Below, in pieces: positions 2,421 to 22,432 of a stretch of DNA of 22,432 nucleotides. The DNA is from Coleofasciculus sp. B1-GNL1-01 (lineage in GTDB: Bacteria; Cyanobacteriota; Cyanobacteriia; Cyanobacteriales; Coleofasciculaceae). The notes under the pieces are model-generated. The model made no database searches, had not been told where the DNA came from, and was given only the letters and a program-made list of their open reading frames with translations. Within the stretch, counting starts at the first letter, position 1; each line of letters opens with the position of its first letter. The stretch lies in the NCBI GenBank assembly GCA_040220235.1, contig JAVJTO010000165.1; one strand, given 5' to 3'. Position numbers and translations under genes: made by a program.

Positions 2421-2630
2421 AGCAATTTAACTGAACGAGTCGTGCAGGCGGAGTCTAGGAGAGGATGCACTGAATGGAGGTATACTAAACTAAGAGAACT
2501 TATGTCAAAAGGTCTGTGCTTGTATTCTAGCTCAGCACCTCTGTAAGAGGATAGTGGAAGGGATGCGATCACGCAGCCATTCAACGAGCAACGTCTTGTC
2601 CGGATAACAAATTGCATCTCTTCCCTGCTC

Positions 2631-2654
2631 CCAGACGTGCCATGGCACGTCTGG
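2631..2654. repeat. REP-like palindrome, AGACGYGCCATGGCRCGTCT family
   Basis: Perfect 24-bp palindrome ccagacgtgccatggcacgtctgg; relatives at ~6466-6488, 10533-10562 and 11656-11685. Confidence 0.8.
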
Positions 2655-2685
2655 AACACTCATCACAATGCTGATTCAGCAAGCC

Positions 2686-3896
2686 CTAGTTATTATCCCC
2701 TGAGCCAAACACATCCCCGACATTCTCAAAAAAGTTGCGAAATCCCAGAAAATCACTAAAGGGTCGAGTCACTAAACGCAAAGCATAGTTGATTTTAGCG
2801 ATAAGGCTACGACCAACCACAATAACATCTTCATTCTGCAAAGGGACATTTTGCGCCAAATCACCCATGAGGACAGCCTTCCCATCAATCTCCTGGGTCA
2901 CAACTTTACCCCGTTCTGGATCAAACCGCATTAAAGCAATCTCACCTAAATCCGCATCCTCCAAACTTGGCGCTAGCGAGGTCAATGCATCAATAAAATT
3001 ACTGCCATTGGGCAAATCCAGGTTGCCAATTCGACCAGTGGGATAACTCAAGACTCGCAGCCTAATTTGCGGTGTCGCTAGCGTCGAGCGAGAGGCGAGA
3101 CTGCGGTCATAATCCATAGTTGTACCCGTTTCCAATTCCAATACGACAACAGAATCCCCATCCCGGAGACGCACATCCGGTAAGGCTGTCGCATTTTGCA
3201 ACGGTGTAAATAAATCAATCTGTTGTTCAATAATCGAATTATCCACAGGAGAACGCCGACGCACGATGACAGTACGCAAGTCAGCCAGATTCGTGGTTCC
3301 GCCAGCCGCTTGTAGAGCCGCCGTAAGCTGGGAACCGGGCGCTAGGGAATAATAACCCGGTCGAGTCACTTCACCGGCAATGGTTATTGTAGCGGGACGC
3401 AATCCGGCTAGAACCACCGTTACATCAGGGTCAACTACAAATTCACTATACGCGGCGGCTAGTTTCGCTTCAACTTGGTCGGGAGTAAGTCCGAGGACGT
3501 TAATTTTACCGACTAAGGGAACTAATATATTCCCTTGTAAATCAATTGTGCCGGAAAAATTAAGGTCAGGAAAACGTTCTACCGTAACCGCAATGGAATC
3601 ACCAATACCGAGAACATATTCATTAAATTGAGTATCCGGGACTCTTTGCGGCGATTCTTCTGGGTAACCCAGGGGGGGCGGTGGGGCAAAGGGATCAGGA
3701 ACATTAATATTTACGCCCTCTGTCGGACTATTAATGTCTTGTGGAGGTGGCAAGGTGGGAATTTGGGCATGTTCTCTTTGGGGAGTTGATGCTGAAGGTT
3801 CTACTATTCTCTGAGACGTTGCCCAAGCGATTGAATTAATTTGCCCTAACCAGCCAATTGCGATTAATGTGCCGACAGCATACCAATTAACTTTAG
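2686..3896 (-). CDS. wza: Polysaccharide export protein (Wza-like, Poly_export + SLBB domains); native start displaced by the IscB element
   Basis: EYVLGIGDSIAVTV...GNILVPLVG motif, SLBB repeats (GEVTRPGYY, LTAALQAAGG, LRDGDSVVV, LQNEDVIVV). The ORF-track start at 4017 lies inside the IS; the native N-terminus reconstructs as TTG-A (5553-5550) joined to CT AAA GTT (3896 downward). Confidence 0.85.
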
Positions 3897-3955
3897 CAAA
3901 ATCTCGCAGAATCCTACGTCTTGTATGCGTAGCATCAAGCGTAGATGAATGCGAG

Positions 3956-5290
3956 TCAGGATGTAAGTTGTTCACAGACTCCCTTCCTCCATAAATAAGG
4001 TTGAACTTTTTTGACATCAGCCGTTAAGTTTTTATCTGCATACAAAGCCACGATGGCACCTAAATTTTGCATACCTCTAACGCGATACACTTCCCCGTCG
4101 AATATCACTAAATCGTTTTGTTGGTATGGATATCGAGACTTTCTGATTGAACGTCGCCCCTTGCTTGTTTTTTGCCCTCGATAAATTCTAAGGTTCTCAC
4201 TGTTTAAGTTTTTATTTCGAGTCCGTCTACCAGAAAACAAGGCTGAACCTGCAACTTTTTTTCCGGTTCTTACATCAATATATTTGGCATCATAGAACTG
4301 CTCAAGAGAGCGTCTATTCCTCCTTGTTTGCTCTAAGTTAAGTACTTGGCATCGTATCTGATTTGTCCCACCTGCGATAACAAAAGCATCGTTTTGATGC
4401 GTTTTTGGCAACTCCAAAGCTTCTCTATCCGCTTCAGTAATGTAGCCATAAGTTTCTTGAACATTTAAAGTTTCAACTAACTTCTTGTACACTATCGTCA
4501 TGAATGTTTCAGCTTTAAATGACTTGAGTTTTGGTTCCCATCCAAACAGAGACTTGCCTTTTTTATGATTTGCAGGTGTATGACACTTCGAGCAAAGTGT
4601 AATCAGATTAGATGGTTTGTTGCTTCGATCAGGTGGTAATTTCCAAAAGCCTAAATGATGAACTTGCAAAATCTTTTGTTCTGACTTGTTTTTGCAGTCT
4701 GGGTTTTGGCACTTGTAACCATCACGATGGCGAACATAAGAAGAAAGATTTTTCCATCCATACTGTTCTCCTTGTTGGTACTGTTCGCCTTGAATCTGAG
4801 GGGTTTTGATTTTCTGGATGTCAAACTTGGTTGTCTCAACAACAACTCTAGTCACAGGAAGTCTTGCTTTTATCCGCTCAACTAGCTTGATCTGACTATC
4901 AAATTTATGTTGAATGCTTGGAGCCAGCCATTCTTCTTGACGCTCCCGATTATCAAATCTAGGTTGACGATGCCGTAAACGATTACGTCTTGTCCTACGG
5001 TATTTTCGACGTTCTGTTATTCGCTCAGACATTCCTTCTAAAAGTTTTAATTCACCTCCGATTAACTCTTCTTTTTCAGTTACAGCACTATACCCAACTG
5101 TTTGATAACCCGAATCAATGCCTAAAGTTACAGGTTGAGTATAACCTCGACATCCATAAAGAAGTTGAATTGTAAAAGGTCTACGAGCATAAATTTTGGC
5201 TCTGCCACTTTCTAACAACTTTCTCGCTTTACGAGGTGTTGTCGGCATCAAAGGTCTACCATGTTTGTTGACTACGAGTACTTTTTGCAT
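3956..5290 (-). CDS. iscB: IscB RNA-guided endonuclease (PLMP, RuvC, RRXRR bridge helix, HNH)
   Basis: GRPLMPT; RuvC-I LGIDSG; RRKYRRTRRNR; RuvC-II VVVETTKFD; HNH with CQNPDC...VHH...NLITLCSKCH; RuvC-III THQNDAFVIA. Confidence 0.95.
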   Translation of the reverse strand: MQKVLVVNKHGRPLMPTTPRKARKLLESGRAKIYARRPFTIQLLYGCRGYTQPVTLGIDSGYQTVGYSAVTEKEELIGGELKLLEGMSERITERRKYRRTRRNRLRHRQPRFDNRERQEEWLAPSIQHKFDSQIKLVERIKARLPVTRVVVETTKFDIQKIKTPQIQGEQYQQGEQYGWKNLSSYVRHRDGYKCQNPDCKNKSEQKILQVHHLGFWKLPPDRSNKPSNLITLCSKCHTPANHKKGKSLFGWEPKLKSFKAETFMTIVYKKLVETLNVQETYGYITEADREALELPKTHQNDAFVIAGGTNQIRCQVLNLEQTRRNRRSLEQFYDAKYIDVRTGKKVAGSALFSGRRTRNKNLNSENLRIYRGQKTSKGRRSIRKSRYPYQQNDLVIFDGEVYRVRGMQNLGAIVALYADKNLTADVKKVQPYLWRKGVCEQLTS

Positions 5291-5549
5291 TGGTTTGAAC
5301 TAGATCAAGTTCGTCTCTTGCGAGTGGTTCACTTCGCCAAAGTTATCTCAGGTTTTGTACGTTCTACACACTTGTGTTACCCATCACAGATGTTTAATGT
5401 AAAACCGCAGTGTCACAGAACTGGTGAAGCATTCTGAAGTGCCTATATATTCTGAGATAACGTAGCTATTTCTAGCTGAGGCTAATCAACAAGGGCGCTT
5501 TTCACACGCCCCGCTTCTATCCGTTAAGGATGAAGCGTGGGTTGTTGAC
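5291..5549 (-). ncRNA. omegaRNA scaffold of IscB (HEARO-like); guide expected from the flank at about 5550-5568
   Basis: 259-nt non-coding segment directly 5' of iscB starting GTCAACAA, which can pair with a downstream TTGTTGAT; multiple hairpins; position matches the established IscB locus layout. Confidence 0.8.
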
Positions 5550-5602
5550 TCAAAATTATTCCCTCCACATCACTCAATTATCAGGACGGGTTTAGCCACA
5601 AT

Positions 5603-5666
5603 TGTAGGGGCGGGTTTAGGGACTCAATTCAAATATCCACCAATAATGGAACAACAAAACCCGCCC
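5603..5666. repeat. REPIN-like GTAGGGGCGGGTTT...AAACCCGCCC element
   Basis: Inverted arms around a variable spacer; relatives at ~6498-6563, ~8954-9007 and ~13631-13691. Confidence 0.7.
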
Positions 5667-5721
5667 TCCCCACCGATAACTCCCCCTGCTTCCCCAGCTC
5701 CCTCTGCTCCCTCTGCGCCCC

Positions 5722-6444
5722 TTAATCCTCTCCCGCCAACGGTTCTGTCATCAACGTTTTTTGCACAGTTTGACTGAGAGATTCAGCGATAGGTTTGACC
5801 TCTGCCAAATCCCCTAACGGTTCCATGGGAATCTGGATAGAAACCGCTATCCATGGTACTCGCTGACGCTTTAACTGGGCAATTTGGTCAACCCAAAACC
5901 ATTGACGGGTGGCGGGATGACCCCCTGTCGCCCAAGCGTACCACTGAACAACGGCAAAGGTTTGTTGTTGAGTCCAAGCGCGAAAGAGACGGGCATTAAC
6001 TTGCGCCTGCTGGGATTGCGTTTCAACGGTAAAGTTTAAGCGTTGATGGGAATCCTTCTTCCATTGAAAGACACCATTAATATCCATCCATTCAACCTGG
6101 GGTTGATCAATCGGACCATTAGGAGGACGTAATAATAACAATACAGGTTTATCCAAGTCTCCCTTAATTTCCTGATACGACCATTTATGTCCCCCTAAGG
6201 TTACGGTTCGTTGCTCTAGGGTTTCCCAGCCCGGAATCTCTAACCCCTCAATTTGCACCACTTTGATGCTACTGAAATTGGCAAATCTCGGTGGCTCAAT
6301 CCACGACCAGTTGCCTGTCAAATAACTGGGTACTGCCCCGATCGCGACAATGACTAACAACAACAGTAACACGATCGCGCGGTTGAATCGCAAGCGTTTA
6401 ATCACCTGGCGCAGTCTTGAGGATTTCATCTGATTTGCCTTCAT
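5722..6444 (-). CDS. Cyanoexosortase B system-associated protein (EpsI-like partner)
   Basis: N-terminal TM then GAVPSYLTGNWSW, PQVEWMDING, TFAVVQWYAW motifs; immediately downstream of the exosortase. Confidence 0.8.
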   Translation of the reverse strand: MKANQMKSSRLRQVIKRLRFNRAIVLLLLLVIVAIGAVPSYLTGNWSWIEPPRFANFSSIKVVQIEGLEIPGWETLEQRTVTLGGHKWSYQEIKGDLDKPVLLLLRPPNGPIDQPQVEWMDINGVFQWKKDSHQRLNFTVETQSQQAQVNARLFRAWTQQQTFAVVQWYAWATGGHPATRQWFWVDQIAQLKRQRVPWIAVSIQIPMEPLGDLAEVKPIAESLSQTVQKTLMTEPLAGED

Positions 6445-6582
6445 GGGCGGAAGAGTTTTGAGTGTTCCAGACGTGTCATGGCGCGTCTTTAAGTTTGTGT
6501 AGGGGCGGGTTTAGGGATTTTAGGCTTGGCTATTGATGGTAACGTTTGTACAAAACCCACCCTGACTAAATACAAACGTTTT

Positions 6583-7482
6583 TTAACCTCCCTCAGATAC
6601 AGAATCAGGGGTTTGAGGTTCGGCATCAACAGAACGTTCAATGACTTTCAGTAAAAGCACCAGAATACCCAACATTCCCGCCGAATATAGATCTCCACCC
6701 CAACTTTCATGCAGCCAATGGAATGCCCCATCCATCCCAGTACCATGGAAGAATGTGAGTAGGGTATTGCGGATAATATTACCAATTACACTAACCAACA
6801 CCGCACCAATGAGCAACAATGTGGTCTTCTGTCGGGATATCCACGCCCCACTCCAGTACAACAGCATTAAACTCACATATAAACTGGTAAACAGCATCTT
6901 TAATCCAGCGCAGTGAGGGGCAACTTCCACAATTCGTCCGCCGACAAATAAGTTAATGCCGACAACATTAACATCAATGCCAAATTGAATCAAAATAAAT
7001 CCGGCAACTCCGGCAATAAAGCGTTGTAGGGGCAAGGCGTAGGGTTCGATTAAGTAAGGAAAGGCAGTGGGTGTTGCCAAAATCACCAACAGTAGGGGAA
7101 AGCTTTGTAAGCGTAAGCCCGGAATCCCTTTAAACCACAAACAAAGTCCCGCTAAAACCGTGGGAAAGGAAATATTAACCAGTTCCGATTGACCCGACAG
7201 ATAAAAAACACCACCAACTGCCAGTAATCCTAACCCAATATAATTTGATTTATCTGGTATGGCTTGCCACTGCTGGCGATGAGTCCAAGCGATGTAGGCG
7301 GCAAAAGGCAAACCAATTAAACCGTGGCTAAAGTATTCATGCTCAATACTAATACTTTTATTCAGCCAGCCATCATACCAGTGGATGAGTAAAGGCGCAT
7401 AGAGGATAATCAGTAAAGCTGCGATCGCACCATCCCACAGGTGACGGTTAATAGCAGTAGGAATCTTTTGTCCAAGTTGCAT
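6583..7482 (-). CDS. crtB: Cyanoexosortase B (exosortase family; unrelated to phytoene synthase CrtB)
   Basis: Multi-TM protein; EHEYFSHG, catalytic-type VAPHCAGLKML, GNIIRN and WLHESWGG (Cys/Arg/His triad of exosortases). Confidence 0.9.
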   Translation of the reverse strand: MQLGQKIPTAINRHLWDGAIAALLIILYAPLLIHWYDGWLNKSISIEHEYFSHGLIGLPFAAYIAWTHRQQWQAIPDKSNYIGLGLLAVGGVFYLSGQSELVNISFPTVLAGLCLWFKGIPGLRLQSFPLLLVILATPTAFPYLIEPYALPLQRFIAGVAGFILIQFGIDVNVVGINLFVGGRIVEVAPHCAGLKMLFTSLYVSLMLLYWSGAWISRQKTTLLLIGAVLVSVIGNIIRNTLLTFFHGTGMDGAFHWLHESWGGDLYSAGMLGILVLLLKVIERSVDAEPQTPDSVSEGG

Positions 7483-7516
7483 AATTGTACCCCGAAATTA
7501 CAGCCGCCGGATGCGG

Positions 7517-8656
7517 TTACAACAGGCTATTGAGGCAATCAACCACCCGCTCAATTTGAGCGTTACTTATTCCAGGATACATAGGCAATGATAAAATTTC
7601 CTGGCACAGGGTCTCGGCATGGGGAAAATCACCCGCTTGATAGCCCAAATAGTGATAAGCGGGTTGTAAATGGCAAGGGAGGGGATAATGGATACCCGTT
7701 TGAATCCCAGCGGTATTGAGTTTCTCTTGCACCATTTCACGAGTCAGGGAACAGGCGGCGGTAATCCGGATGACGTACAGATGATACACATGACCCGTAC
7801 CGCTTTGGTTTTGGATGGGGATAATCCCTTTATCGGCTAGCGGTGCTAATAATTGGTCATAATACTGGGCGGCGGCGTTGCGAGACTGATTCCATTGGTG
7901 TAAGTGGGGTAACTTGGCGTTAAGAATCGCTGCTTGGATGGAATCTAAGCGACTATTTTTGCCCAGTTCTGAGTGATAATATTTACGGGGTGCGCCATAA
8001 TTCCGCAGCGATCGCAAGGTCTGATAGACATCGGGATCACTCGTCAGGGCGATTCCGCCATCGCCAAACGCGCCTAAATTCTTACTCGGATAAAAGCTAA
8101 AACCAGCGGCTTCACCCACCGAACCCGCCCGATACCCGTCCCGTTGGGCTAAATGGGCTTGGGCGGCGTCTTCAAAGAGTAACAGGTTATGGCTATGGGC
8201 AAAGTTGAGTGATTGCGGCGGTGATACCATCTGACCATAGAGGTGAACGGGTATAATCGCCTTGGTTTTGGGAGTGATTGCCCTTTGTGCTGCATTCAGG
8301 TCAATCAGGGCGGTGTTGGGGTCACAATCGGTTAAGACGGGCGTCGCCTTTGCCTCAAGCACACCAATGAGGGTGGCAATAAACGTATTGGCAGGAACAA
8401 TCACTTCATCACCTGCACCAATCCCATTTGCTTGTAATCCTAGCGCGATCGCATCCGTCCCGGAAGCGACACCGACACCATACTCTGCACCAGACGCCGC
8501 CGCAAATGCTGCTTCCAACTCGGCTAAGGCTTGACCTAAAACGAAATCGCCGCGCTGGATAACCGTCTGAATCGCTTGTTCAATGTCCGCTTGAATCGGC
8601 TGGTGTTGCAGCGTCAGATCAACAAAGGGAATGGTTTCTGGGGGTGGGGGGTTCAT
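7517..8656 (-). CDS. DegT/DnrJ/EryC1/StrS family sugar aminotransferase
   Basis: IPFVDL, GVASGTDA, PVHLYGQ, EDAAQAH, SFYPSKNLGAFGDGG (PLP lysine), LSLPMYP. Confidence 0.93.
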   Translation of the reverse strand: MNPPPPETIPFVDLTLQHQPIQADIEQAIQTVIQRGDFVLGQALAELEAAFAAASGAEYGVGVASGTDAIALGLQANGIGAGDEVIVPANTFIATLIGVLEAKATPVLTDCDPNTALIDLNAAQRAITPKTKAIIPVHLYGQMVSPPQSLNFAHSHNLLLFEDAAQAHLAQRDGYRAGSVGEAAGFSFYPSKNLGAFGDGGIALTSDPDVYQTLRSLRNYGAPRKYYHSELGKNSRLDSIQAAILNAKLPHLHQWNQSRNAAAQYYDQLLAPLADKGIIPIQNQSGTGHVYHLYVIRITAACSLTREMVQEKLNTAGIQTGIHYPLPCHLQPAYHYLGYQAGDFPHAETLCQEILSLPMYPGISNAQIERVVDCLNSLL

Positions 8657-10532: not shown

Positions 10533-10562
10533 AGTAGAGACGTTGCATGCAACGTCTCTACT
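10533..10562. repeat. GTAG-type REP palindrome downstream of the DUF1517 gene (possible terminator or RNA stabiliser)
   Basis: Perfect 30-bp palindrome agtagagacgttgcatgcaacgtctctact. Confidence 0.8.
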
Positions 10563-11687: not shown

Positions 11688-11901
11688 GGGTCTGCTGAAT
11701 AAGTCTTGTGGTGGGGAGAGGCAATAGGGAATAGGCAATGGGCAATGGTTTCAACCCTCTGTCGAGGGAGAATTCAGCGCTGAGGTCGGCAAAAATTCCA
11801 GGATGCAAGACGGTTATAGTGTAAAAACCTTGCACTTGTTGGGTCGGAAAATGGCTTGAAACCCCTATCTAGTCTACCTTACACACTTATGCAGCAAGCC
11901 C
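11688..11901. mobile_element. 214-bp MITE with terminal inverted repeats and TACATA direct repeats
   Basis: TACATA|GGGTCTGCTGAATAAG ... CTTATGCAGCAAGCCC|TACATA; internal heptamer-like GGCAATA/GGGAATA repeats. Confidence 0.7.
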
Positions 11902-11979
11902 TACATAAATGATGTGTCCTAACCGCTATGGCGGTTGCTATATGTGCTTTCGCTAACCTTTTCCTACCCTCATCCCCTC

Positions 11980-13476
11980 TCAACGTTGAGACCAAGGAAT
12001 CTCAGACTTATCGGCTAAGAGACTCGCCACAGCCGCTGCGCCATACCGATTAAGATGACTCGGATCAGCAAAATACTGATTCTGATTTTTCCATTGTTCT
12101 CCTAAATCAACAAAAACAAACTCATTCCGAGCCGCCTTCTGCTGCATTCGCTTGCGGAATTGCCGTTCACGAGTTAAACGCACCGAATCTAAATAATCAT
12201 CACTTACAGGCAAATTCACAATCACCAAAGGAATCTGCTGCTGTGCTAAAAACGCCTGAATCGAATTCAACGCCACCGTCTGCGGACCGGCAAAGCTAAA
12301 GGGTTGATAATCGGCATCATAACGCCCCGCCACACGCGGATTTTGCTGATAGTACGTTTTTGGGTCAAATTTACTATCCATCGGCAAAAAGCCATTGGCA
12401 TCCATCGCGATCGCACTGTACCCTGTAGTATTACGTGCCAGTGCTAGTCGTTGCGGTTGGCTTCCCCCTAACTGAGTTAAGAGCAACCGCGTCTCTGGAG
12501 TGGTGACAGGATTGCTACTGGTTTCAAAGGAAACGCGGGTTAATCGCCAGCGTTCAGCCGTGTCATTAGCAGGTATAGTATTTCGCGGTTGTGTGGATTT
12601 TTCTGAGTCGGGACTCTGGGTAATGGATGCCGGAATCTCTTCACAAGTATTTGGGGTTTTGGTCGTCGATTCCGGTAGGTTGGGGCGATTCCCTGCCATT
12701 ACCTGTTGATAGCCCGCCGATGTTGCCAAACTATTATAGGTTTTATCCGTTCGCCCACTATTAAACGCCCGCACGCCATCTGCCCAAATCACCAGGCGCG
12801 GGAGTTGTTCTGGCGTTAAAAGTTGCCGCAGTTGAAAATCAACCACTTGAGCCGTCGCCCCATTCACGCCAAAGTTGAAAATTTTTAACCCCCCTTTACC
12901 GTAACGCGCCAGCACTTGTTGCAGTTGTTGCGGATCAACACCAACTAATGCCCGTGAACTACCTACAATCAGGACATCTGGAGGACCAACGGCGGCGACA
13001 TAAGACAGATACAGCAGGAGTTGTTCTTCAAAGATGGGGTTATTAAAGCTGGCAAAGGGTAGAGGAGAGGTTTTTGTCGTGGCTTTTTGTTGGGCAACAT
13101 CTAAGTTGTTTAGATATTCTGCCACCTTTTTCTGAGCAAAGGCTCGTTTCGGACTATCCGGTGGCACCGACTGCATCGCTTCAATCGCTTGAATCCAGCC
13201 TAAGACAACCAAATCCCAATCTTGGGGCGATTGGGCAGATTGAGCCAGATTCGCCGCCCCCATCGCTTTGTCAATCGCTTTGGTAAAGGGATCAACTTGG
13301 GGCGGACAGGATGGAGAATTTTCCACCGCGAGAATGGATTCAGCCGGGGAGTCCGCTTGGGATGGGGAATGCTGATTTTTAGCCGTATCAGGAGGAGAAT
13401 TCCATGAACAGCCAGTTACCCCCACCAATAACGCGGCAAGGGCGGTATAGGGACGTTTCCAGTAAAAATTAGCCAT
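11980..13476 (-). CDS. Putative lipoprotein with C-terminal SGNH-hydrolase-like (DUF1574-like) domain
   Basis: Likely start ATG 13476 (MANFYWKR...LLVGVTGC lipobox); helical N-domain; IVGSSR, NFGVNGA and FADPSHLN blocks. Confidence 0.65.
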   Translation of the reverse strand: MANFYWKRPYTALAALLVGVTGCSWNSPPDTAKNQHSPSQADSPAESILAVENSPSCPPQVDPFTKAIDKAMGAANLAQSAQSPQDWDLVVLGWIQAIEAMQSVPPDSPKRAFAQKKVAEYLNNLDVAQQKATTKTSPLPFASFNNPIFEEQLLLYLSYVAAVGPPDVLIVGSSRALVGVDPQQLQQVLARYGKGGLKIFNFGVNGATAQVVDFQLRQLLTPEQLPRLVIWADGVRAFNSGRTDKTYNSLATSAGYQQVMAGNRPNLPESTTKTPNTCEEIPASITQSPDSEKSTQPRNTIPANDTAERWRLTRVSFETSSNPVTTPETRLLLTQLGGSQPQRLALARNTTGYSAIAMDANGFLPMDSKFDPKTYYQQNPRVAGRYDADYQPFSFAGPQTVALNSIQAFLAQQQIPLVIVNLPVSDDYLDSVRLTRERQFRKRMQQKAARNEFVFVDLGEQWKNQNQYFADPSHLNRYGAAAVASLLADKSEIPWSQR

Positions 13477-14345: not shown

Positions 14346-15548
14346 ATGCGATTGACAACGTTGTTTCCTCGATTACGCCAAATCAGCGCTTATCTGATCG
14401 CGATCGCGACAGGTGTTCTGTTGACGGTTGGGTTTTATAATGTCTCACCCTCTCACGCTGAACCGATCTTGACAAATGAACCCGAATCCCCAATAGTTCT
14501 CGCCCAACGCCCACCCATTACCGATATCGGCGGCAGTTTTGTCACGGCGGCGGTGAATCAAGTGGGACCGGCTGTGGTACGAATTGACACGGAACGTACA
14601 GTAACACGCCGCCTCGATCCATTTCTTGATGATCCCTTCTTCCGGCGGTTTTTCGGGGAGGATGCGTTTCCCCAAATGCCCCAAGAACGGCGTCTGCGGG
14701 GTCAAGGATCTGGGTTTATTATTGATCCCACTGGTGTAGTTGTCACCAATGCCCATGTGGTGGATCGGGCAGATAAGGTAACGGTGATTCTCAAAGACGG
14801 ACGCCAGTTTGAAGGGAATGTGCAAGGTGTCGATGAAATCACAGATTTAGCGGTGGTCAAAATTGATGGCAACGATTTGCCTGTTGTCTCACTGGGAGAC
14901 TCGACTAATGTACAAGTTGGGGATTGGGCGATCGCGGTGGGCAATCCCTTGGGGTTAGATAATACCGTGACGCTAGGGATTATCAGTACTCTCCAGCGAT
15001 CGAGTGCAGAAGCTGGGATTCCCGAAAAACGACTTGATTTCATTCAAACCGACGCCGCCATTAACCCTGGTAACTCTGGGGGTCCACTGTTAAACCAACA
15101 GGGACAAGTGATTGGTATCAATACCGCGATTCGTCCAGATGCGATGGGGATTGGGTTTGCCATTCCCATTAATAAAGCTAAAGAAATTACCGCCAAGCTG
15201 ATGCGGGGTGAAAAAGTTGTCCACCCATTCATCGGTATTCGCATGACTACCCTAACCCCGCAACTGGCGCAAGAAAATAATCGCGATCCCAATTCCTCGT
15301 TTATGGTACCGGAAGTGAATGGGGTTTTAGTCGTGCAAGTTGTACCTGATTCTCCAGCAGCAGCAGGAGGTATGCGTCGTGGGGATGTTGTCACAGCCAT
15401 TAATGGACAATCGGTGACGAGTGCAGAACAGTTACAACGTTTAGTTGAGAATAGTGGTGTGAATCAAGTTCTCCAAGTCAAAGTGGTGCGGGGTAACCAG
15501 ACGAAAACTTTATCAGTCCGCACCAGCGAAATGCGAGAAACAACGTAA
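14346..15548 (+). CDS. HtrA/HhoA-family serine protease with one PDZ domain
   Basis: GSGFII, TNAHVV (His), DLAVVKI (Asp), TDAAINPGNSGGPL (Ser), PDZ with DSPAAAGGMRRGDVV. Confidence 0.93.
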   Translation: MRLTTLFPRLRQISAYLIAIATGVLLTVGFYNVSPSHAEPILTNEPESPIVLAQRPPITDIGGSFVTAAVNQVGPAVVRIDTERTVTRRLDPFLDDPFFRRFFGEDAFPQMPQERRLRGQGSGFIIDPTGVVVTNAHVVDRADKVTVILKDGRQFEGNVQGVDEITDLAVVKIDGNDLPVVSLGDSTNVQVGDWAIAVGNPLGLDNTVTLGIISTLQRSSAEAGIPEKRLDFIQTDAAINPGNSGGPLLNQQGQVIGINTAIRPDAMGIGFAIPINKAKEITAKLMRGEKVVHPFIGIRMTTLTPQLAQENNRDPNSSFMVPEVNGVLVVQVVPDSPAAAGGMRRGDVVTAINGQSVTSAEQLQRLVENSGVNQVLQVKVVRGNQTKTLSVRTSEMRETT

Positions 15549-15592: not shown

Positions 15593-15928
15593 CTACCATT
15601 CCAATCCATCACGTTTCTCGGACACACTTTCAGGCGCGATCGCAGCTAAATCAACTGCTACCTCCCGTCCCATCTGTTCAGCTAACTGTTGAAACGCCTT
15701 GGTGACAACCTGCCGCATGAGTTCGCCATATCCGCCATCCATTCCTACTGCCCAATCTCTCAACCTCAGACGGGTTTCATGCTCGCTCGCTGCCTGAGTA
15801 TAAATTGATTTCCAAACCTCTGGGTGTTCCAGCAGTGCATCCGGTAATCTCATGAGCGGCAGAAAAGGTCTTGCCCAGGTTAGGGTTGGCAAGGATAAGG
15901 CTGGTAGCCAGTCAGTATATGTCCTCAA
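15593..15928 (-). pseudogene. Probable fragment of a hypothetical protein gene
   Basis: Protein-like central part; runs through a HIP1 site (15636-15643) and stops in a REP; start overlaps the upstream gene; no family recognised. Confidence 0.35.
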
Positions 15929-16790
15929 TTCTAATTTCGATACCTCGATTAGCTATCCTTTGCAAAGATGCATTAACCTCATCGCGGACTTGTTCAGAAG
16001 GGTCGTACTTCATCTGTAAAAGCTCCGCATATGCCTTTTGTGCTAGTTGTTGGTCATGAGAATCCTTGACAATATGCTCTAATCCATGAGGTATCAACGA
16101 ACGCGGTTCCGCCGCTTCGATATTCTTCAGTCGGCATAATACTTGAAATGCTTGCTCGTTGGCAAAGTATTCCCCTAGCATTTCCGATATTACAAACCAT
16201 GCCATCCAATCCGTAAATGAACTGTAGGAACTTTCTAGCAACGGCAGGAGCCGATTTTTCTGATCTTCAGAGAGGAATTCCCAATTTTCTATTTCTAAAA
16301 TATAGAGTAAATGCCATGCTCCTTTTGAGGTCAAGAAACGATTTTGTTTGAGAAAACCAAGAATCAAGTTTAAGTACTTATCTGGAAAATAGCTGAGTCC
16401 TGAAACGGCAGATGATATGGCTTTTGCACATTCTTTCATCTGCATTTCTTCTCCTGAATTAATAGCTTGTTCAATAGCTTCTGAAAATAGTTCTGGAGAA
16501 ATTTTTTCAATAGAATCGTAAGCGATTAACATTGCAGAGTTAATTCGATCTCGTTGGGCAAAGGACAAACTCTCTCTAGGAATTTGAAAGAGCATTGCAA
16601 AATACCATCCTCCTCCTAGACCTATAAATTTCGGTTGCTCTAGTAAATTGATGAAAAAATCTATATCTTCTGGACTAAAATTTTTTTCCTCCAACATTAA
16701 ACCTTTGAGTTTATAAAAACATTCCCTAAGTAGCTTAGTATCACCGCAAATGAGGGCTTGATAGATAGTTTTTTTGAATTGTTCAATCAT
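15912..16790 (-). CDS. Candidate immunity protein 3: alpha-helical, two internal ~95-aa repeats plus a HEAT-like end
   Basis: Directly downstream of DUF4157 toxin 3, AT-rich; C-terminal YDPSEQVRDEV resembles a HEAT repeat. Confidence 0.6.
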   Translation of the reverse strand: MIEQFKKTIYQALICGDTKLLRECFYKLKGLMLEEKNFSPEDIDFFINLLEQPKFIGLGGGWYFAMLFQIPRESLSFAQRDRINSAMLIAYDSIEKISPELFSEAIEQAINSGEEMQMKECAKAISSAVSGLSYFPDKYLNLILGFLKQNRFLTSKGAWHLLYILEIENWEFLSEDQKNRLLPLLESSYSSFTDWMAWFVISEMLGEYFANEQAFQVLCRLKNIEAAEPRSLIPHGLEHIVKDSHDQQLAQKAYAELLQMKYDPSEQVRDEVNASLQRIANRGIEIRIEDIY

Positions 16791-16843
16791 AACTTATTCT
16801 CGTTATATTGGGGGTCTTCATAGATATTTATGCTCAGCTCTAT

Positions 16844-17937
16844 TTAATGAATAGGTCGCCGATCGATTAACTGTAGTCCTAATAGGCTAGCTAGTGTAAT
16901 TAGTGCTGCCAAACCCCAGGATGGAAGGGTGACAGCCGCTCCTATGACTATAGCCCCAGCAACTATAATCACTCCTGCTCTAACTGCCCAGTCAGGTAGT
17001 CTAAACCAATTAACATTTGGATCGTCTGATTCTCGAACATCTTCAGGGAGTTGACCGCACTTTGCCACATATTTTGCTTTTTGTGCAGCTAAACTTTCTT
17101 TTGCTTCATTAATCAGCCGCCGATGACCTCTCTTACTGAGTCTAGGTTTTTTATCATCATCTGGGTGAGTCTCAGGTAAGTTATGTAGATTTTCTGCTAG
17201 TTCTCCTATCCGTTTTCTGACTTCTTGTATAAGATTGCGTATTCTTCGTAAAATGTCTGCACATTCTTTTTCAGTTCCTCCTCCTTTGTTGTTACTTAGC
17301 TCTACTTGTGGATTTATTTCTTTTTCATTAGTAAATTGTTTGGATTGAGCGATCTCTTTAATATTTAGTGCAATCTGTTCTCTTCCTTGCTGTACCACAT
17401 GAGTCAACTCGTTGGCAGTCCACTCATTATTACCAGGAGACTTCCCAGCCCCAAAGAAAATATCCCGCTCATGAGTAAACGCCTGAGCGCCCAACTCCCG
17501 ACTCATCTGCACGGCTTCACCACCCGTATGCACCCTTACTGAGCTGAAATCTGCACCAAAGCGCGGCTCCATGAAGCTTCGCACCTCATGCGATAAAGGA
17601 CTACCACCGCCCTTAGAGGCATTCAACTGAGTCTCTACATTACTGCTCGTCTCAAAGCCGCCATCTGAGGTTGCCTTAGCTTGAACCTTTTCTTGCTTCT
17701 CATCCTCTAATGCCATCTCCCGTTGCACTAGGGGAGTAATAGAAGCAGCGATTGGTTTAGCTTGCACTTTCTCAACCTTTTCCTCGGCTATCCCTTCCCG
17801 TTGAATTGGCTGATTGTTGACAGGTGCAGGCATTAACATCACCTGACGCGCTACGGTATCAGCTTCCACCTCATACTTATCCCCAGGCGCACCATTGGAG
17901 TCCAGGAGGAATTGTTCTTTTGTAGGGGTTTATACAT
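16844..17937 (-). pseudogene. DUF4157 (eCIS-core) protein 3 with a novel C-terminal domain; 5' end out of frame
   Basis: Open frame 16844-17869 has GGGSPL...MEPRFGADFSSVRVH...AQAFT...ANELTHVVQQ (His to Asn in HExxH); ATG at 17937 (MYKPLQKNNSSWTP, same as the lead gene) is 68 nt upstream and out of frame. Confidence 0.75.
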
Positions 17938-18030
17938 GATGCCGCCTCAGTTACCTGATGATTTATTGAATCCAGCTTAATCCTGGAGGAAACTCTATCA
18001 TTCTATCTCCTCATCGCCTATCCAGAACAC

Positions 18031-18070
18031 TATCAGTACACACCAGCGAACTGCGAGAAACAACGTAGCG
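18031..18070 (+). repeat. Direct repeat copy 2: orphan copy of the htrA 3' end
   Basis: tatcagtacacaccagcgaactgcgagaaacaacgtagcg, 2520 bp downstream of copy 1. Confidence 0.9.
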
Positions 18071-18147
18071 CATAAAGCATAAATCTTGCCATAACGCACT
18101 GTCATCAAGTTGGATGGGTGCGTTACTTCGTTAACGCAGCCGACAAG

Positions 18148-18222
18148 ATCCGCGATCGCACTCAAAAAAGCGATCGCCTACACTTGATTAGATTGTGATT
18201 TTAACACGGCTAATTTTGCTAT
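18148..18222. repeat. Direct repeat A: HIP1 pair plus 3' end of the HEAT gene
   Basis: atccgcgatcgcact...atcgcctacac...attagattgt.attttaacac.gctaattttgctat recurs at 20080-20157. Confidence 0.88.
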
Positions 18223-18999
18223 AATGCTCTGACTATGATGAGCTAATAGTGGGAAACGCTTTTCAAGTAAATTCAATACTTGACAAATTTCGGATGCATC
18301 AGAAGTAATTGTTAATGGTATTTTGCGATCTATCAAATCACCTAATATATTGAGCATAACGGTAGCTAAATCTTCATCCGCATTTTCAAAAAAAGTCAAT
18401 AGCGATTTCATGGCTTCCGTGTCACCAAGCCTGTATTTAGCTGCTAATAGTTCAGCTTTAACTTCTAGGGAATCTTCTGATTCAATGTAAGTTTGAAGCT
18501 GTGGTAATAGATCGGGTTTACCTACAAGTCCGAGGGAGTTAGCCGTATATGACCGAACTGCTTCATCAGGATCTTGCATTGCTGATTTTAAAGTATCTAG
18601 AGCATCAGGATCTCCTAGATCTCCAAGCGTTTCTGCTGCTGACGCCCGAACCAGGGGAGCCGAATCGTTAAGTAACAAGGACTCGATTGAATCTCTTGCT
18701 GGTTTATAAGCAAGTATTCCCAAGGAATCTGTTGCCCCCGATCTAACCAGCTCTTTTGGATCGACTAGTAAGTTTATAAGTGCACAGCCAACAGATTCAA
18801 TTTCGTTTTCTCCCAAATCACCAAGAGCTTCTGCTGCACAGAAGCGAATTCCCTCATCAGAAGAATGCAGTAATTCTAATATCACGGGGACAGCCGAATC
18901 AGCTTTCATTTTGACTAATTCCTGAAGTGCAAAAGCTTGCTCTTTAGGTTCGCCAGAAGCACACTTTTCTATTAACTTATTAATCCTAGTATCTTGCAT
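18178..18999 (-). CDS. HEAT-repeat protein, candidate immunity protein 2
   Basis: Tandem HEAT motifs (IRFCAAEALGDLG, VRSGATDSLG, VRASAAETLGDLG, VRSYTANSLG); starts 18 nt after the toxin 2 stop with an AAGGAG RBS. Confidence 0.85.
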   Translation of the reverse strand: MQDTRINKLIEKCASGEPKEQAFALQELVKMKADSAVPVILELLHSSDEGIRFCAAEALGDLGENEIESVGCALINLLVDPKELVRSGATDSLGILAYKPARDSIESLLLNDSAPLVRASAAETLGDLGDPDALDTLKSAMQDPDEAVRSYTANSLGLVGKPDLLPQLQTYIESEDSLEVKAELLAAKYRLGDTEAMKSLLTFFENADEDLATVMLNILGDLIDRKIPLTITSDASEICQVLNLLEKRFPLLAHHSQSIIAKLAVLKSQSNQV

Positions 19000-19017
19000 G
19001 AAAATAACTCCTTAACT

Positions 19018-20109
19018 CTAACTATCGCGACTATGGCGACTGTGCCTACATCTTTTTGCTTTTTGGGTTGCTTTGATTCTGTTGATTTTGTTGGTATCTC
19101 CAGCAGCTTTAGCTGCCGCCATCAAGATAGCCAGTGCTTCACAAATATCTCCAGCTCTACCGCTACTTATGAGTTCGTTAGCTTCTGCCAATATGCCTGT
19201 ATCCGCTTGATTTCCCCGAGCAGCCATTGGGAAAATATGTTCTCGAATATAATCTTCAATTTCCCTTAGCCCCTCTCTAGCCGTATCACCCGCTCTATTA
19301 AGTATATTTTCAAGGTCTTCCAGAGTACCATCAATACCTCTAGTAATAACATTACTAATCCTGCCAATTTCTTCCCAACCGCCGTTGTTCAAGTACCAAA
19401 CAACAATCCCAAATCCAACAATTGTCAAACCCACAGGACCAAAAACAACAGCAGGTGCAGCCACAGCAACTCGTTGGATTACCTCAGTTTTCATCCGTGC
19501 TATTGGCTTTGAAGCAGTGGTCTGCTGCACTACATGAGTCAACTCATGCGCCAACAACTCTTGCCCATCCCGACTCCCTGGATTATATTCTCCCTGTTTA
19601 AAAAAGATATCCGGACCCGTCGTAAACGCCCGGGCATTTAAGGAGCGATTAAGCTGATCAGCATTGCTATTGTTATGCACCCTCACGCCACTAAAATCAG
19701 CCCCAAACGCCTGTTCCATTGGCTCTCTAACGTCCTCGGAAAGCCCCTGTCCGCTACCTTTGGCTTGTTGAATACTTTGCTCAACAGAAGCATCAACCGC
19801 ACCTCCACCAACTCCGCCATCACGCATCACTGTTGGCTGAGCTACTGGTTCTACTTTTCCTTGTACGGATTGCTGGGACGTGGGAGAATTAATCTGTTCG
19901 ACGACTTTTGCCGCTACTGTGTCGGCTTCCTGTTCGTACTTATCTCCTGGTTGCCCGACTGTTAACTTTCTCTGGAGTGGACTCAGGGTGTGTGGAGTCA
20001 GGGTAGGCATTCTCTGTCTGACGACATCAGCAACTGAAATCCTTGATTCTGACTGAGGCTGTACTGTTGGCGTTTCTGTATCCGCGATCGCACTAACCAA
20101 AACAGCCAT
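19018..20109 (-). CDS. DUF4157 protein 2, N-terminally truncated orphan cassette, with a TM segment and Ntox34-like C-terminus
   Basis: DUF4157 (AFGADFSGVRVH...LLAHELTHVVQQ), hydrophobic VAVAAPAVVFGPVGLTIVGFGIVVWYL, C-terminal GNQAD...C...KATQKAKRCRHS. Confidence 0.8.
   Translation of the reverse strand: MAVLVSAIADTETPTVQPQSESRISVADVVRQRMPTLTPHTLSPLQRKLTVGQPGDKYEQEADTVAAKVVEQINSPTSQQSVQGKVEPVAQPTVMRDGGVGGGAVDASVEQSIQQAKGSGQGLSEDVREPMEQAFGADFSGVRVHNNSNADQLNRSLNARAFTTGPDIFFKQGEYNPGSRDGQELLAHELTHVVQQTTASKPIARMKTEVIQRVAVAAPAVVFGPVGLTIVGFGIVVWYLNNGGWEEIGRISNVITRGIDGTLEDLENILNRAGDTAREGLREIEDYIREHIFPMAARGNQADTGILAEANELISSGRAGDICEALAILMAAAKAAGDTNKINRIKATQKAKRCRHSRHSRDS
19522..20079. repeat. 558-bp near-identical duplicate of 21655-22212 (offset 2133), covering the DUF4157 core
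   Basis: Direct nucleotide comparison; similarity stops at the HVVQQ codons. Confidence 0.93.
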
Positions 20110-20157
20110 CGCCTACACGTTATTAGATTGTCATTTTAACACAGCTAATTTTGCTAT
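20080..20157. repeat. Direct repeat B: decayed remnant of the HEAT-gene 3' end plus HIP1
   Basis: Minus strand reads IAKLAVLK*QSNNV* versus IAKLAVLKSQSNQV* in the intact gene. Confidence 0.88.
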
Positions 20158-20257
20158 CTACTGTCTCGTTAAATGGGGCTTTCCAGGACAAATTCCCAAG
20201 CGCGATCGCACGGCTTCCCCTTCACCTTATACCTTTTCTCCGATTTGACGTTTTAAT

Positions 20258-20698
20258 TTACCGTCTCCATCGCCTTACCAACTTTATAGGAGACGTCGCT
20301 TCTAGGCAAACCTCACCTGCCTGCAACTGTAATACGACCCCCACAGACTCTCCAAAGGCAGGTTGATCTGTTATTTTGGGAAAAGTCATATAAAATTCCA
20401 AAGAATCATTGGCGCTAACTTGGAAAGACTGGGGGTCTAAACTGACTTGTTCCTCTCGATCCCAGACAGTAACTGGCTGTACTAACTGACGCTCATCTCC
20501 TACCTTTAACCAAAGATGTTTCACAGAAGCTGAAAGGGGAGAATCGTCGGGGTTATTCAGTTCAAAGTGACCATGACCTATAGCTAGGTTTGACTCATAA
20601 GTGATGGTAACCGTTTGTCCAGTGAGAGTAGGAGACATAGGAGGATTCGGGTTAACGACATTGAGAAAGTAGCTGAGAAAGTGGATTAACATGTCCAT
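20258..20698 (-). CDS. Hypothetical beta-rich protein, candidate immunity/accessory protein 1
   Basis: 146 aa; start overlaps the end of the lead DUF4157 gene (translational coupling); alternating hydrophobic beta-strand pattern. Confidence 0.6.
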   Translation of the reverse strand: MDMLIHFLSYFLNVVNPNPPMSPTLTGQTVTITYESNLAIGHGHFELNNPDDSPLSASVKHLWLKVGDERQLVQPVTVWDREEQVSLDPQSFQVSANDSLEFYMTFPKITDQPAFGESVGVVLQLQAGEVCLEATSPIKLVRRWRR

Positions 20699-22428
20699 TT
20701 AGAAGTATCATGTGTCACTTCGTTAACTGTCCGGATTGGACCAGGAACCTTTTCGCCAATCTTTGCAGGTCGAACATAAACACTACCATCTGGGCGAAGA
20801 ACCTCCACATCAGGACCAGAACCTAATCGTCCGATGATTTCCTCTCCTCCTCCTGCAACTGAAGGGTACTCAGCCGCTACAAATTCGTCTACCTTAGCTT
20901 GATCAGCATACTCCCGCCCTTGAGCATCACTGGAGCGAAGTTCAGGAAACCCAGAGAGACCCATTCCGATAGAAAATTCCTCCCCAATTCGATAAGCATA
21001 GCCTTCTACCTCTTGAGTAGTAGAGTGGGTACTAGGTTGCTTAGCATGGAGTACCTCGTGGTAAAGAGTTTCCGCAACTGCCTCGCAGGTTTCATCATTG
21101 AGAAGACCAATTTCCCTGTCAGATGTGCTTTGGTATCCTCCACCAGGAAATGGATCTACAACCCAAGATTTACCATCCCACTTCTCGTCATCCCAGAAGA
21201 TACTATCAAAGGATTTGACAGTATAGGAACTCAGTACATCAACCGTGTGAGGACTCCAAGGACAGAGAATATCCTTTACGCAAGACCAATTCCACGTAGC
21301 TCTTAATTTAGCCTTAGCCGGAAGAGTCACAGGTGGGAAACGAGCATCAAGAGCAGCCATTGTTTTCGGACCAACCAGTCCATCGGGTACAAGACCTTTG
21401 CCTTTTTGAAATTGACGAACTGCGGCATCAGTTTCTGCGCCAAATTCCCCGTCTGCTCCAAATTTTGGCAGGGGGATGCCGATGTCGTATAAAGCTTGCT
21501 GGATAGCTTGCACACCTCGACCAGAGGAGCCTTTCTTAATCAGGGTTTCGTCATCGTATGCTTCCTCCAAATCCAGCAATTTGGAGAAACGAGGAGAGGT
21601 TAAGTCATGTCCATCCCCTAGAGTTCTTTGCAAAGTTTGTTTTTGACCAACTCCCTGCTGAACTACATGAGTTAATTCATGTGCCAATAACTCTTGCCCA
21701 TCCCGACTTCCTGGATTATATTCTCCCTGCTTAAAAAAGATATCCGGACCTGTCGTAAACGCCCGGGCATTTAAGGAGCGATTAAGCTGATCAGCATTGC
21801 TATTGTTATGCACCCTCACGCCACTAAAATCAGCCCCAAACGCCTGTTCCATTGGCTCTCTAACGTCCTCGGAAAGCCCCTGTCCGCCACCTTTGGCTTG
21901 CTGAATACTTTGCTCAACGGAAGCATCAACCGTACCTCCACCAACACCACCATCACGCCTCACTGTTGGCTCAACGACAGGCTCTACTTTTCCTTGTACG
22001 GATTGCTGGGACGTGGGAGAATTAATCTGTTCGACGACTTTTGCCGCTACTGTGTCGGCTTCCTGTTCGTACTTATCTCCTGGCTGCCCGACTGTTAACT
22101 TTCTCTGGAGTAGAGTCAGGGTGTGTGGAGTCAGGGTGGACATTCTCTGTCCGACGACATCAGCAACTGAAATCCTTGATTCTGACTGAGGCTGCACTGT
22201 TGGCGTTTCTGTCTCCTGAGACCCCTTGGCTTCCAGACTTCGCATCACATTCGCGGCTAGTCTATCCGCCGACTCTCTGGAATACTCCCCTATTTCCGGC
22301 GACTGAGACGATTTTTGATTTGGCTTGGGTTGAATCGAAAAATGCCCTAATTTAGACGGACTCTTGCTCTTTTTCTGTGCCGTTGTTGGAGTCCAGGAGG
22401 AATTTTTCTTTTGTAGGGGTTTATACAT
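20686..22428 (-). CDS. Full-length DUF4157 (eCIS-core) protein with peptidoglycan-binding domain and C-terminal HExxH metallopeptidase-like domain
   Basis: Disordered N-terminus, LTVGQPGDKYEQEAD, DUF4157 HELTHVVQQ; PG-binding LIKKGSSGRGVQAIQQAL...DGEFGAETDAAVRQFQ...DGLVGPKT; ETLYHEVLHAKQ...EVEGYAY. Confidence 0.88.
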   Translation of the reverse strand: MYKPLQKKNSSWTPTTAQKKSKSPSKLGHFSIQPKPNQKSSQSPEIGEYSRESADRLAANVMRSLEAKGSQETETPTVQPQSESRISVADVVGQRMSTLTPHTLTLLQRKLTVGQPGDKYEQEADTVAAKVVEQINSPTSQQSVQGKVEPVVEPTVRRDGGVGGGTVDASVEQSIQQAKGGGQGLSEDVREPMEQAFGADFSGVRVHNNSNADQLNRSLNARAFTTGPDIFFKQGEYNPGSRDGQELLAHELTHVVQQGVGQKQTLQRTLGDGHDLTSPRFSKLLDLEEAYDDETLIKKGSSGRGVQAIQQALYDIGIPLPKFGADGEFGAETDAAVRQFQKGKGLVPDGLVGPKTMAALDARFPPVTLPAKAKLRATWNWSCVKDILCPWSPHTVDVLSSYTVKSFDSIFWDDEKWDGKSWVVDPFPGGGYQSTSDREIGLLNDETCEAVAETLYHEVLHAKQPSTHSTTQEVEGYAYRIGEEFSIGMGLSGFPELRSSDAQGREYADQAKVDEFVAAEYPSVAGGGEEIIGRLGSGPDVEVLRPDGSVYVRPAKIGEKVPGPIRTVNEVTHDTSKWTC

Positions 22429-22432
22429 GATG

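Follow-up and report, generated by a model that had tools for sequence, protein, structure and literature searches.

A probable DUF4157 effector-immunity island in Coleofasciculus, satellite to a contractile injection system, and a polyprenyl-synthase-like gene linked to some of its units

A stretch of 22,432 nucleotides from the mat-forming cyanobacterium Coleofasciculus sp. B1-GNL1-01 (GenBank assembly GCA_040220235.1, contig JAVJTO010000165.1), called the window here, is the whole of contig C165 of an 8.66-Mb draft genome (G000). It carries a tandem array of three minus-strand genes, g1, g2 and g3, in each of which the eCIS_core domain (PF13699, the same as DUF4157) scores above the Pfam cut-off. 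They have the organization of polymorphic toxins, a constant N-terminal carrier joined to a variable C-terminal tip, and each is followed by a partner gene (i1, i2 and i3). An original prediction, made from the sequence alone, had described three genes with the same N-terminus that diverge after HVVQQ. This holds for g1 and g2, which share 95% identity across 562 nt and part directly after that motif; g3 has an N-terminal part of another paralog type, with 42% identity to g1 across the core region. The tips are unrelated and each is followed by a different downstream gene, as had been noticed, and only g1 has an intact leader and start, g2 having lost its leader and g3 being frameshifted.

The leader of g1 is rich in Lys, Ser, Pro and Gln across its first 72 residues, a description of composition only; g2 and g3 have this segment either missing or not in frame. 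The tip consists of a peptidoglycan-binding domain and an unnamed HExxH zincin-like domain. The former was present in every one of the 102 homologs of tip 1 that were found, and H, E, H and a third E were invariant in an alignment of 62 rows. The predicted model of tip 1 is confident (predicted local distance difference test, pLDDT, 95.8), and its matches to zincins are weak (Z 4–5.8, root-mean-square deviation 3–6 over 80–140 residues). The product of g1 is a probable periplasmic metallopeptidase. An identical, named homolog of g1 assigns the DNA to Coleofasciculus. A homolog of i1 lies directly downstream of tip 1 in 19/19 metagenome loci with GC contents of 40–77%, two of them near-identical to the window; a scan of the genome collection using tip 1 alone gave one close relative only. 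The i1 protein is the candidate immunity protein of tip 1.

The reading frame of g2 is open, yet about the first 72 residues are missing and the start is an ATG in the spacer. The identical start is kept in the congener G002 and in two metagenome contigs. At the position of this ATG (window 20084-20109), sister spacers show the HIP1 palindrome, GCGATCGC versus GCGATGGC, and the ATG forms an in-frame restart of the truncated gene. The tip is Ntox34 (PF15606, aa 294–360, E 8.6e-25, above cut-off) with a HEAT gene downstream. Imm-HEAT is listed as the partner of Ntox34 by Zhang et al. (PMC3482391). A true orphan pair exists elsewhere in the genome, on C31 (57061-58090), where an Ntox34 tip lacking a carrier is accompanied by an intact HEAT gene that shares 52% identity with i2.

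Compared with an intact copy in a congener, g3 has lost about 430 nt, which leaves its own leader ATG (17937) joined out of frame, and the core motif reads NELTH in place of HELTH. Contigs of two public runs, one of which may be the source sample, span the lesion (17472-17944, 1 difference); the lesion is real. An intact copy of module 3 with the same partner is present in another island, in G004 (C175). The predicted model of tip 3 is a Cys-bounded helical hairpin (SxRGH) with a hydrophobic tail and an invariant His. There were 149 homologs, and approximately 35 of the 80 that were scanned carry Rhs or YD-shell domains; in Rhs proteins, tip 3 sits behind the DPxGL core motif. No Foldseek match to the fold was obtained at E up to 0.001, generic hairpins alone were found with Z up to 8.2, and sequence matches to PDB were to the Rhs core only. 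Among 400 sampled cyanobacterial genomes there was one weak match, to the tail only, and among plasmids there was none. The HEAT-likeness of i3 is an Atlas lead only. The next feature, x4, is the first third of a further partner gene, the leftover of a lost module; the toxin that goes with this gene in relatives has a tip related to tip 3 (hhalign probability 91%). Profile searches and structure prediction of the C-termini, as proposed in the original prediction, named tip 2 and gave weak zincin matches for tip 1 and no informative fold match for tip 3.

The window is the distal, htrA-proximal end of a larger island, and the array runs past the contig end. The end of the window overlaps C155, which overlaps C80 by 38 nt. 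C155 has an upstream, fourth DUF4157 module with its leader deleted, comprising DUF4157, linker and tip, followed by a lipoprotein gene and a polyprenyl-synthase-like gene; C80 carries an Afp15-like ATPase. This AAA ATPase of the island and the polyprenyl-synthase-like gene, both outside the window, were missed by the original prediction. The order of the island would be: pentapeptide gene, ATPase, fourth module, g1-i1-g2-i2-g3-i3-remnant, htrA. Related strains had been expected to differ at this locus, and module content does vary among nine congeners: modules are present at the island site in six, an i1 remnant in one, and none in two. Among near-identical sequences, the module orders are B-1-2-3 here, 1-2-B in G002, D-1-2 in a metagenome contig and A-B-C-2' in G003. 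Full-length leader-bearing genes stand in tandem, three in G003 and more in G002. The spacers are stacks of former ends, in which the 3' ends of i1, i2, htrA and the last gene of another module can be recognized, the htrA 3' end having been captured in two different ways. The i1-g2 spacer, with the g2 ATG inside it, has HIP1 sites at 20084 and 20202; the i2-g3 spacer contains a pair of HIP1 sites, 45 nt copied from the 3' end of htrA (18026-18070), a 3' end left by a gene of another module and then the shared leader region. In run X1, contig depth is 30 for module 1 and about 100 for modules 2 and 3 and htrA, depth within a run not being equal to copy number.

There are 97 eCIS_core matches in the genus, of which 95 genes were recovered, and 13 matches in G000. 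The 93 congener tips fall into 59 coarse clusters, and one partner family is found in 14 of the 16 tip clusters with at least two partner calls. Many congener partners are lipoproteins. The pairing of tip with cognate downstream gene in 19/19 tip 1 loci and 14/16 clusters, and in close kin only for tip 3, bears out the view of the locus as a DUF4157-carrier polymorphic effector/partner array.

HIP1 was considered as a recombination site and found no support: one junction (20083) abuts HIP1, and there are 5 sites in 7 kb compared with 0.81/kb genome-wide. Site-specific integration at htrA was also considered; no integrase open reading frame (ORF) was seen in the complete island of G003, despite the two htrA 3'-end captures. 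In G007 (C687, locus L004, 1-235), the right end of the island is joined to left-boundary sequence, as in a tandem duplication or an excised circle, or this may be an assembly artefact. Another contig of G000, C127 (8.9 kb), combines a 1183-aa DUF4157 gene with genes resembling a tyrosine recombinase and a peptidase, and is possibly a mobile element bearing an effector. Metatranscriptomes yielded no evidence for expression of the window, 59–66% of whose words occur in seven runs; in the two runs examined, cover was flat and contigs reached 109 kb, which makes DNA carry-over likely.

Structural genes for an extracellular contractile injection system (eCIS) are found in G000 on C29, C172, C83 and C30, and encode a sheath, four tubes, baseplate J, gp25, a PAAR-like protein and Pvc16. 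The proposal that delivery would be in trans is in keeping with this, and the array has marks of eCIS cargo, namely the eCIS_core domain together with CIS structural genes and an Afp15-like ATPase in the genome. G000 has four Afp15-like ATPases. Each has DUF4157 genes next to it that carry a leader type of their own, and the congeners show the same pattern. Loading in AlgoCIS needs a disordered N-terminus and an AAA ATPase, not DUF4157, and a specificity between leader and ATPase was suggested by the authors (10.64898/2026.05.27.728243). Two DUF4157 proteins were found in preparations of the thylakoid-type system (tCIS) of Anabaena (PMC8894136), and archaeal DUF4157 toxin-immunity pairs have been verified (PMC11566945). 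A phage-tail-like syringe probably fires the Coleofasciculus toxins. Among the four effectors of the island, we infer that g1 would be the sole loadable one, g2 being open but leaderless and g3 dead; i2 and i3 may still be protective. Six loci (L026, L028, L130, L132, L134 and L135) encode effectors that have the same leader or linker and lack the DUF4157 core. A partner gene goes with each of them, and the absence of the core fits its published dispensability for loading. Near another Afp15-like ATPase, on C59 (13532-17596, L124), there is an annexin-repeat DUF4157 effector with a lipoprotein gene and a 292-aa third gene that has no Pfam family; Pfam gave no support for ABBA prenyltransferase as its identity.

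The third gene on C155 belongs to a recurrent arrangement. A linker of approximately 80 residues lies between core and tip in some effectors, and with a linker profile built from three G000 sequences, 11 of the 95 genus genes had both the linker and a polyprenyl-synthase-like gene, 84 had neither, and 0 were discordant. The 11 effectors, all complete, span six tip clusters; a twelfth enzyme lies behind a truncated gene. Two comparisons serve as controls: a single tip family has linker and enzyme on C50 and neither of them on C4, and a different tip, which in G448 is accompanied by both, has neither in Coleofasciculus. Outside the genus, a sample of 401 genomes yielded four linker genes in three genomes, with the enzyme two to three genes downstream for three of the four; the enzyme of G186 is on a different contig from its linker gene. 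Four more enzyme loci in a class-wide sample each lie directly behind an effector or an effector-partner pair, with a recognizable linker in one. The protein resembles the isoprenyl diphosphate synthases (IDS), and 7/8 IDS-like loci outside the genus stand one to three genes behind an effector-type gene. The linkage of enzyme and effector genes recurs in other cyanobacterial families.

Canonical trans-IDS enzymes have the motifs GKRxRP, a first aspartate-rich motif (FARM) with RRG, and a second DDxxD. The third gene does not conform to this description, GKRxRP, RRG and the canonical second DDxxD being found in 0/47 rows of the family; the first aspartate motif is kept in 43/47. The three housekeeping synthases of G000 keep most canonical motifs. 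A first aspartate motif kept and a second altered is the pattern of the ComQ/PalQ type, and ComQ-type peptide prenyltransferases likewise keep the first (PMC13290415, PMC10853753). The Trp acceptor of this type is missing, as the linker has no conserved Trp; characterized trans-IDS-like prenyltransferases modify Trp (PMC13290415). N-prenylation of Arg by other cyanobacterial enzymes is known (PMC12371840).

When the C50 enzyme was co-folded with its own linker, the score was 0.89, compared with 0.00 for the best control; at least 68% of contacts were common to runs and partner pLDDT was 66 or more. Among solved pairs 116/157 came up to the mark, and among mismatched pairs 2/215, counts that are only roughly applicable since the analysis used its own alignments. 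The predicted interface sets invariant linker residues against enzyme residues 266–275, and includes the linker tail (..TLRRCISG), FARM, Lys161 and both aspartate-motif regions. An R/K-C-G-type motif ahead of the tip is present in 9/13 distinct enzyme-linked effectors and 3/53 others; this pattern was chosen after viewing the sequences, so that its p-value overstates. It is tentatively proposed, at somewhat less than even confidence, that a cognate trans-IDS-like enzyme takes hold of the linker and adds a prenyl group to a residue other than Trp where the tip begins, in the manner of ribosomally made, post-translationally modified peptides (RiPPs). The candidate acceptor would be the Cys of R-C-G-x-S or a conserved Arg, and the toxin would be lipid-anchored before injection. 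On the same tentative proposal, such units would pass from one satellite island to another, and every island would have an AAA loader and a leader code of its own.

The IDS-like family was not found in viral contigs; one plasmid match was 25% identical, and there was a partial match in G851. In G920 (L136, 830-1090) the gene for an 86-aa peptide, presumably Nif11-like, lies about 5 kb upstream of an IDS-like gene; for this genome alone, the peptide might be the substrate instead. For Methanomethylovorans hollandica, the genes listed at an eCIS locus include a polyprenyl_synt of about 320 codons (PMC8213781, supplement file 12), which may be of the same family. In the table of Geller, polyprenyl_synt was not enriched in eCIS operons, with 3 counts, and Ntox34 had 0 counts (PMC8213781, 12 of 15 supplementary files). 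Nothing relevant was found on a link of a prenyltransferase-like gene to such effectors in a mostly freely accessible literature, bioRxiv supplements excluded, or in the accessible part of 10.1101/2025.01.14.632903.

What was computed here, the anatomy, variation, gene linkage, motif loss and co-fold score, is probably best explained by a DUF4157 effector-immunity island that is satellite to a contractile injection system; loading, toxicity, immunity and lipidation are supplied by inference. The island would serve a system of extracellular or thylakoid type, and its unit would be a whole gene pair, with a shared leader, DUF4157 and variable tip followed by the cognate partner (immunity) gene. 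By analogy with AlgoCIS, effectors that carry a leader would be loaded by the island's ATPase into a syringe whose genes lie elsewhere in the genome. Units would be acquired, lost, rearranged and transferred between islands through recombination in the leader and carrier that they share, with old units decaying at the leader and their partner genes remaining intact. In a subset, the trans-IDS-like protein would recognize the linker ahead of the tip and most likely prenylate or otherwise mature the effector.

Several observations weigh against this explanation. The island ATPase in G000 is missing approximately its first 21 codons together with the divergent promoter region; with this 5' truncation, loading in G000 would need the C50 paralog. 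Module order comes from draft assemblies with 38- and 140-nt overlaps inside repeats, and the congeners are non-independent samples. The pairing of tip 3 with i3 was observed in close relatives only. The window i1 has no lipobox, and by eye about 7/19 homologs have a hydrophobic N-terminus, which makes the case for periplasmic immunity weak. With respect to the third gene, 14 of the 84 genes with neither linker nor enzyme have less than 2.2 kb of downstream sequence, and the Cys motif is missing in 4/13 distinct enzyme-linked effectors, including the one on C155 beside the window. Co-divergence of linker and enzyme is weak: a mirror-tree gave rho 0.62, p 0.018 (9 pairs), and 0.26, p 0.18 without the C155 pair, and was not used as support.

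The original prediction had favored an Rhs-style locus with one full gene and orphan tips. In its strict form, derived from Rhs and contact-dependent inhibition (CDI) systems, one expressed carrier is followed by silent tip-immunity cassettes that recombine into it. The 562-nt block shared by g1 and g2 would permit such tip exchange, the C31 pair has no carrier, and one tip, which we take to be L,D-transpeptidase-like, stands behind three different leader types. The immunity remnants that Zhang et al. describe (PMC3482391) are similar to x4 and to the stacked scars of 3' ends. Against the claim stand g2 and g3, which keep the carrier core and have decayed by deletion, the congeners with several full-length genes bearing their own leaders in tandem, the intact module 3 in another island of G004, and the position of g1, which is not the head of the array; we consider the model unlikely. 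Slightly less likely still is action of the modules within the producer's own filament, as addiction or programmed cell death through a thylakoid-type CIS, rather than on neighbors. The tCIS of Anabaena has been tied to ghost-cell formation (PMC8894136), and dead toxins beside intact partners would suit addiction modules; the same tips cap Rhs proteins, however, many partners are lipoproteins, and the high diversity of tips in co-occurring strains suits competition.

The remaining alternative touches the third gene only, and the rest of the satellite-island explanation could stand beside it. The polyprenyl-synthase-like protein may be a non-catalytic chaperone or adaptor that holds or folds the effector through the linker, with no lipidation. 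Co-folding indicates binding at most, the three canonical motifs are missing in 47/47 rows, characterized relatives take Trp (PMC13290415) and the linker has none conserved, and the C155 enzyme is under purifying selection (pN/pS 0.17–0.28) though its effector lacks the motif Cys. Retention of the donor-binding first aspartate motif in most rows, a predicted interface that reaches the linker tail, FARM, Lys161 and second-motif residues, and the post hoc excess of the R/K-C-G motif in enzyme-linked effectors speak for an enzyme instead. The chaperone is a real possibility, held with some doubt.

In Rhs, CDI and MafB arrays the orphan cassettes are carrier-less tips, whereas here whole leader-bearing genes decay. 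Tip 3 is common to Rhs proteins, and Ntox34-HEAT is an Rhs-type pair. Toxin-immunity order, tip exchange and remnant immunity genes are also alike (cassette model, PMC3482391). The PVC-metallopeptidase (DUF4157) polymorphic toxins likewise have an N-terminal DUF4157 carrier and variable toxin tips (PMC3482391, PMC8213781, PMC11297309), and Microcoleus chthonoplastes was named as rich in them by Zhang et al. in 2012 (PMC3482391). Those papers stress that many of the toxins have no immunity gene beside them, unlike here, where nearly every unit has a locked partner, and neither a satellite island that has an ATPase of its own nor a third gene of prenyltransferase-like kind was encountered in their accessible portions. 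The experimentally verified haloarchaeal pairs (Zachs et al. 2024, PMC11566945) also consist of a DUF4157 toxin and downstream immunity gene, some outside the CIS cluster. That system is archaeal and resembles the type VI secretion system, and strain-level shuffling or modifying enzymes were not encountered in the accessible text (PMC11566945). Alr3311/3312 of the Anabaena tCIS (PMC8894136) and Cgo1/Cgo2 with Alg15 of AlgoCIS (10.64898/2026.05.27.728243) share the leader-DUF4157-tip cargo and AAA+ loader; their cargo lies at the CIS cluster, whereas here structural genes are scattered and there are at least four ATPase paralogs, each with its own leader family. As described (PMC13290415, PMC10853753), ComQ, PalQ and ChrPC are alike in isoprenoid-synthase family, a first aspartate motif kept and a second altered, an adjacent substrate gene and a leader-like recognition segment. 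They modify Trp of small RiPPs; here the substrate would be a large injected effector whose linker has no conserved Trp.

Coordinates of the array and its boundaries in the window, with domain matches and partner lengths
Feature	Position	Strand	Description
g1, intact effector	20686..22428	-	leader, eCIS_core (aa 185-259), PG_binding_1 (aa 303-360), HExxH..E zincin-like tip (aa ~368-580)
g1 eCIS_core match	gene 20686-22428	-	E 1e-33
i1, tip 1 partner	20258..20698	-	146 aa; overlaps g1 stop; without Pfam family
i1-g2 spacer	20084..20257	-	60-nt HEAT-gene 3'-end copy (20098-20157)
g2, leaderless open effector	19018..20109	-	eCIS_core and Ntox34 tip
g2 eCIS_core match	gene 19018-20109	-	E 1e-33
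i2, HEAT-repeat partner	18178..18999	-	273 aa; probable Imm-HEAT of Ntox34
i2-g3 spacer	17938..18177	-	stacked scars
g3, pseudogene	16844..17937	-	leader out of frame, core HExxH decayed
g3 eCIS_core match	gene 16844-17869	-	E 2e-24
i3, intact helical partner	15912..16790	-	292 aa; internal duplication
x4, remnant partner gene	15593..15928	-	N-terminal third only
htrA	14346..15548	+	conserved right boundary of island
C155 overlap	22293..22432	-	140 nt, exact

Elsewhere in the window, the minus-strand region 195-8656 is presumably an exopolysaccharide export cluster, with genes that we take to be Wzc-like, Wza-like and exosortase-like and a DegT-like aminotransferase. Inserted in it (3956-5290, minus strand) is a 444-aa ORF with an RRXRR-like start and a CxxC..H region, which we assume to be IscB-like; C29 has a similar ORF (11815-12936) directly upstream of its sheath gene. 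A 28-bp perfect palindrome (10534-10561) behind a DUF1517 gene is found in congener loci as well. A scan for promoters and terminators gave chance level only.

The array alone is a clear example of the known DUF4157 toxins, to which it adds two unnamed tip families and candidate immunity proteins. The pairing of ATPase paralogs with leader families in one genome offers a natural test of loader-leader specificity, the hypothesis of a 2026 preprint. If the tentative proposal for the third gene is true, bacteria would lipidate their own injected protein toxins, and trans-IDS-like prenylation would extend from small Trp peptides to large effectors and to a new acceptor residue.

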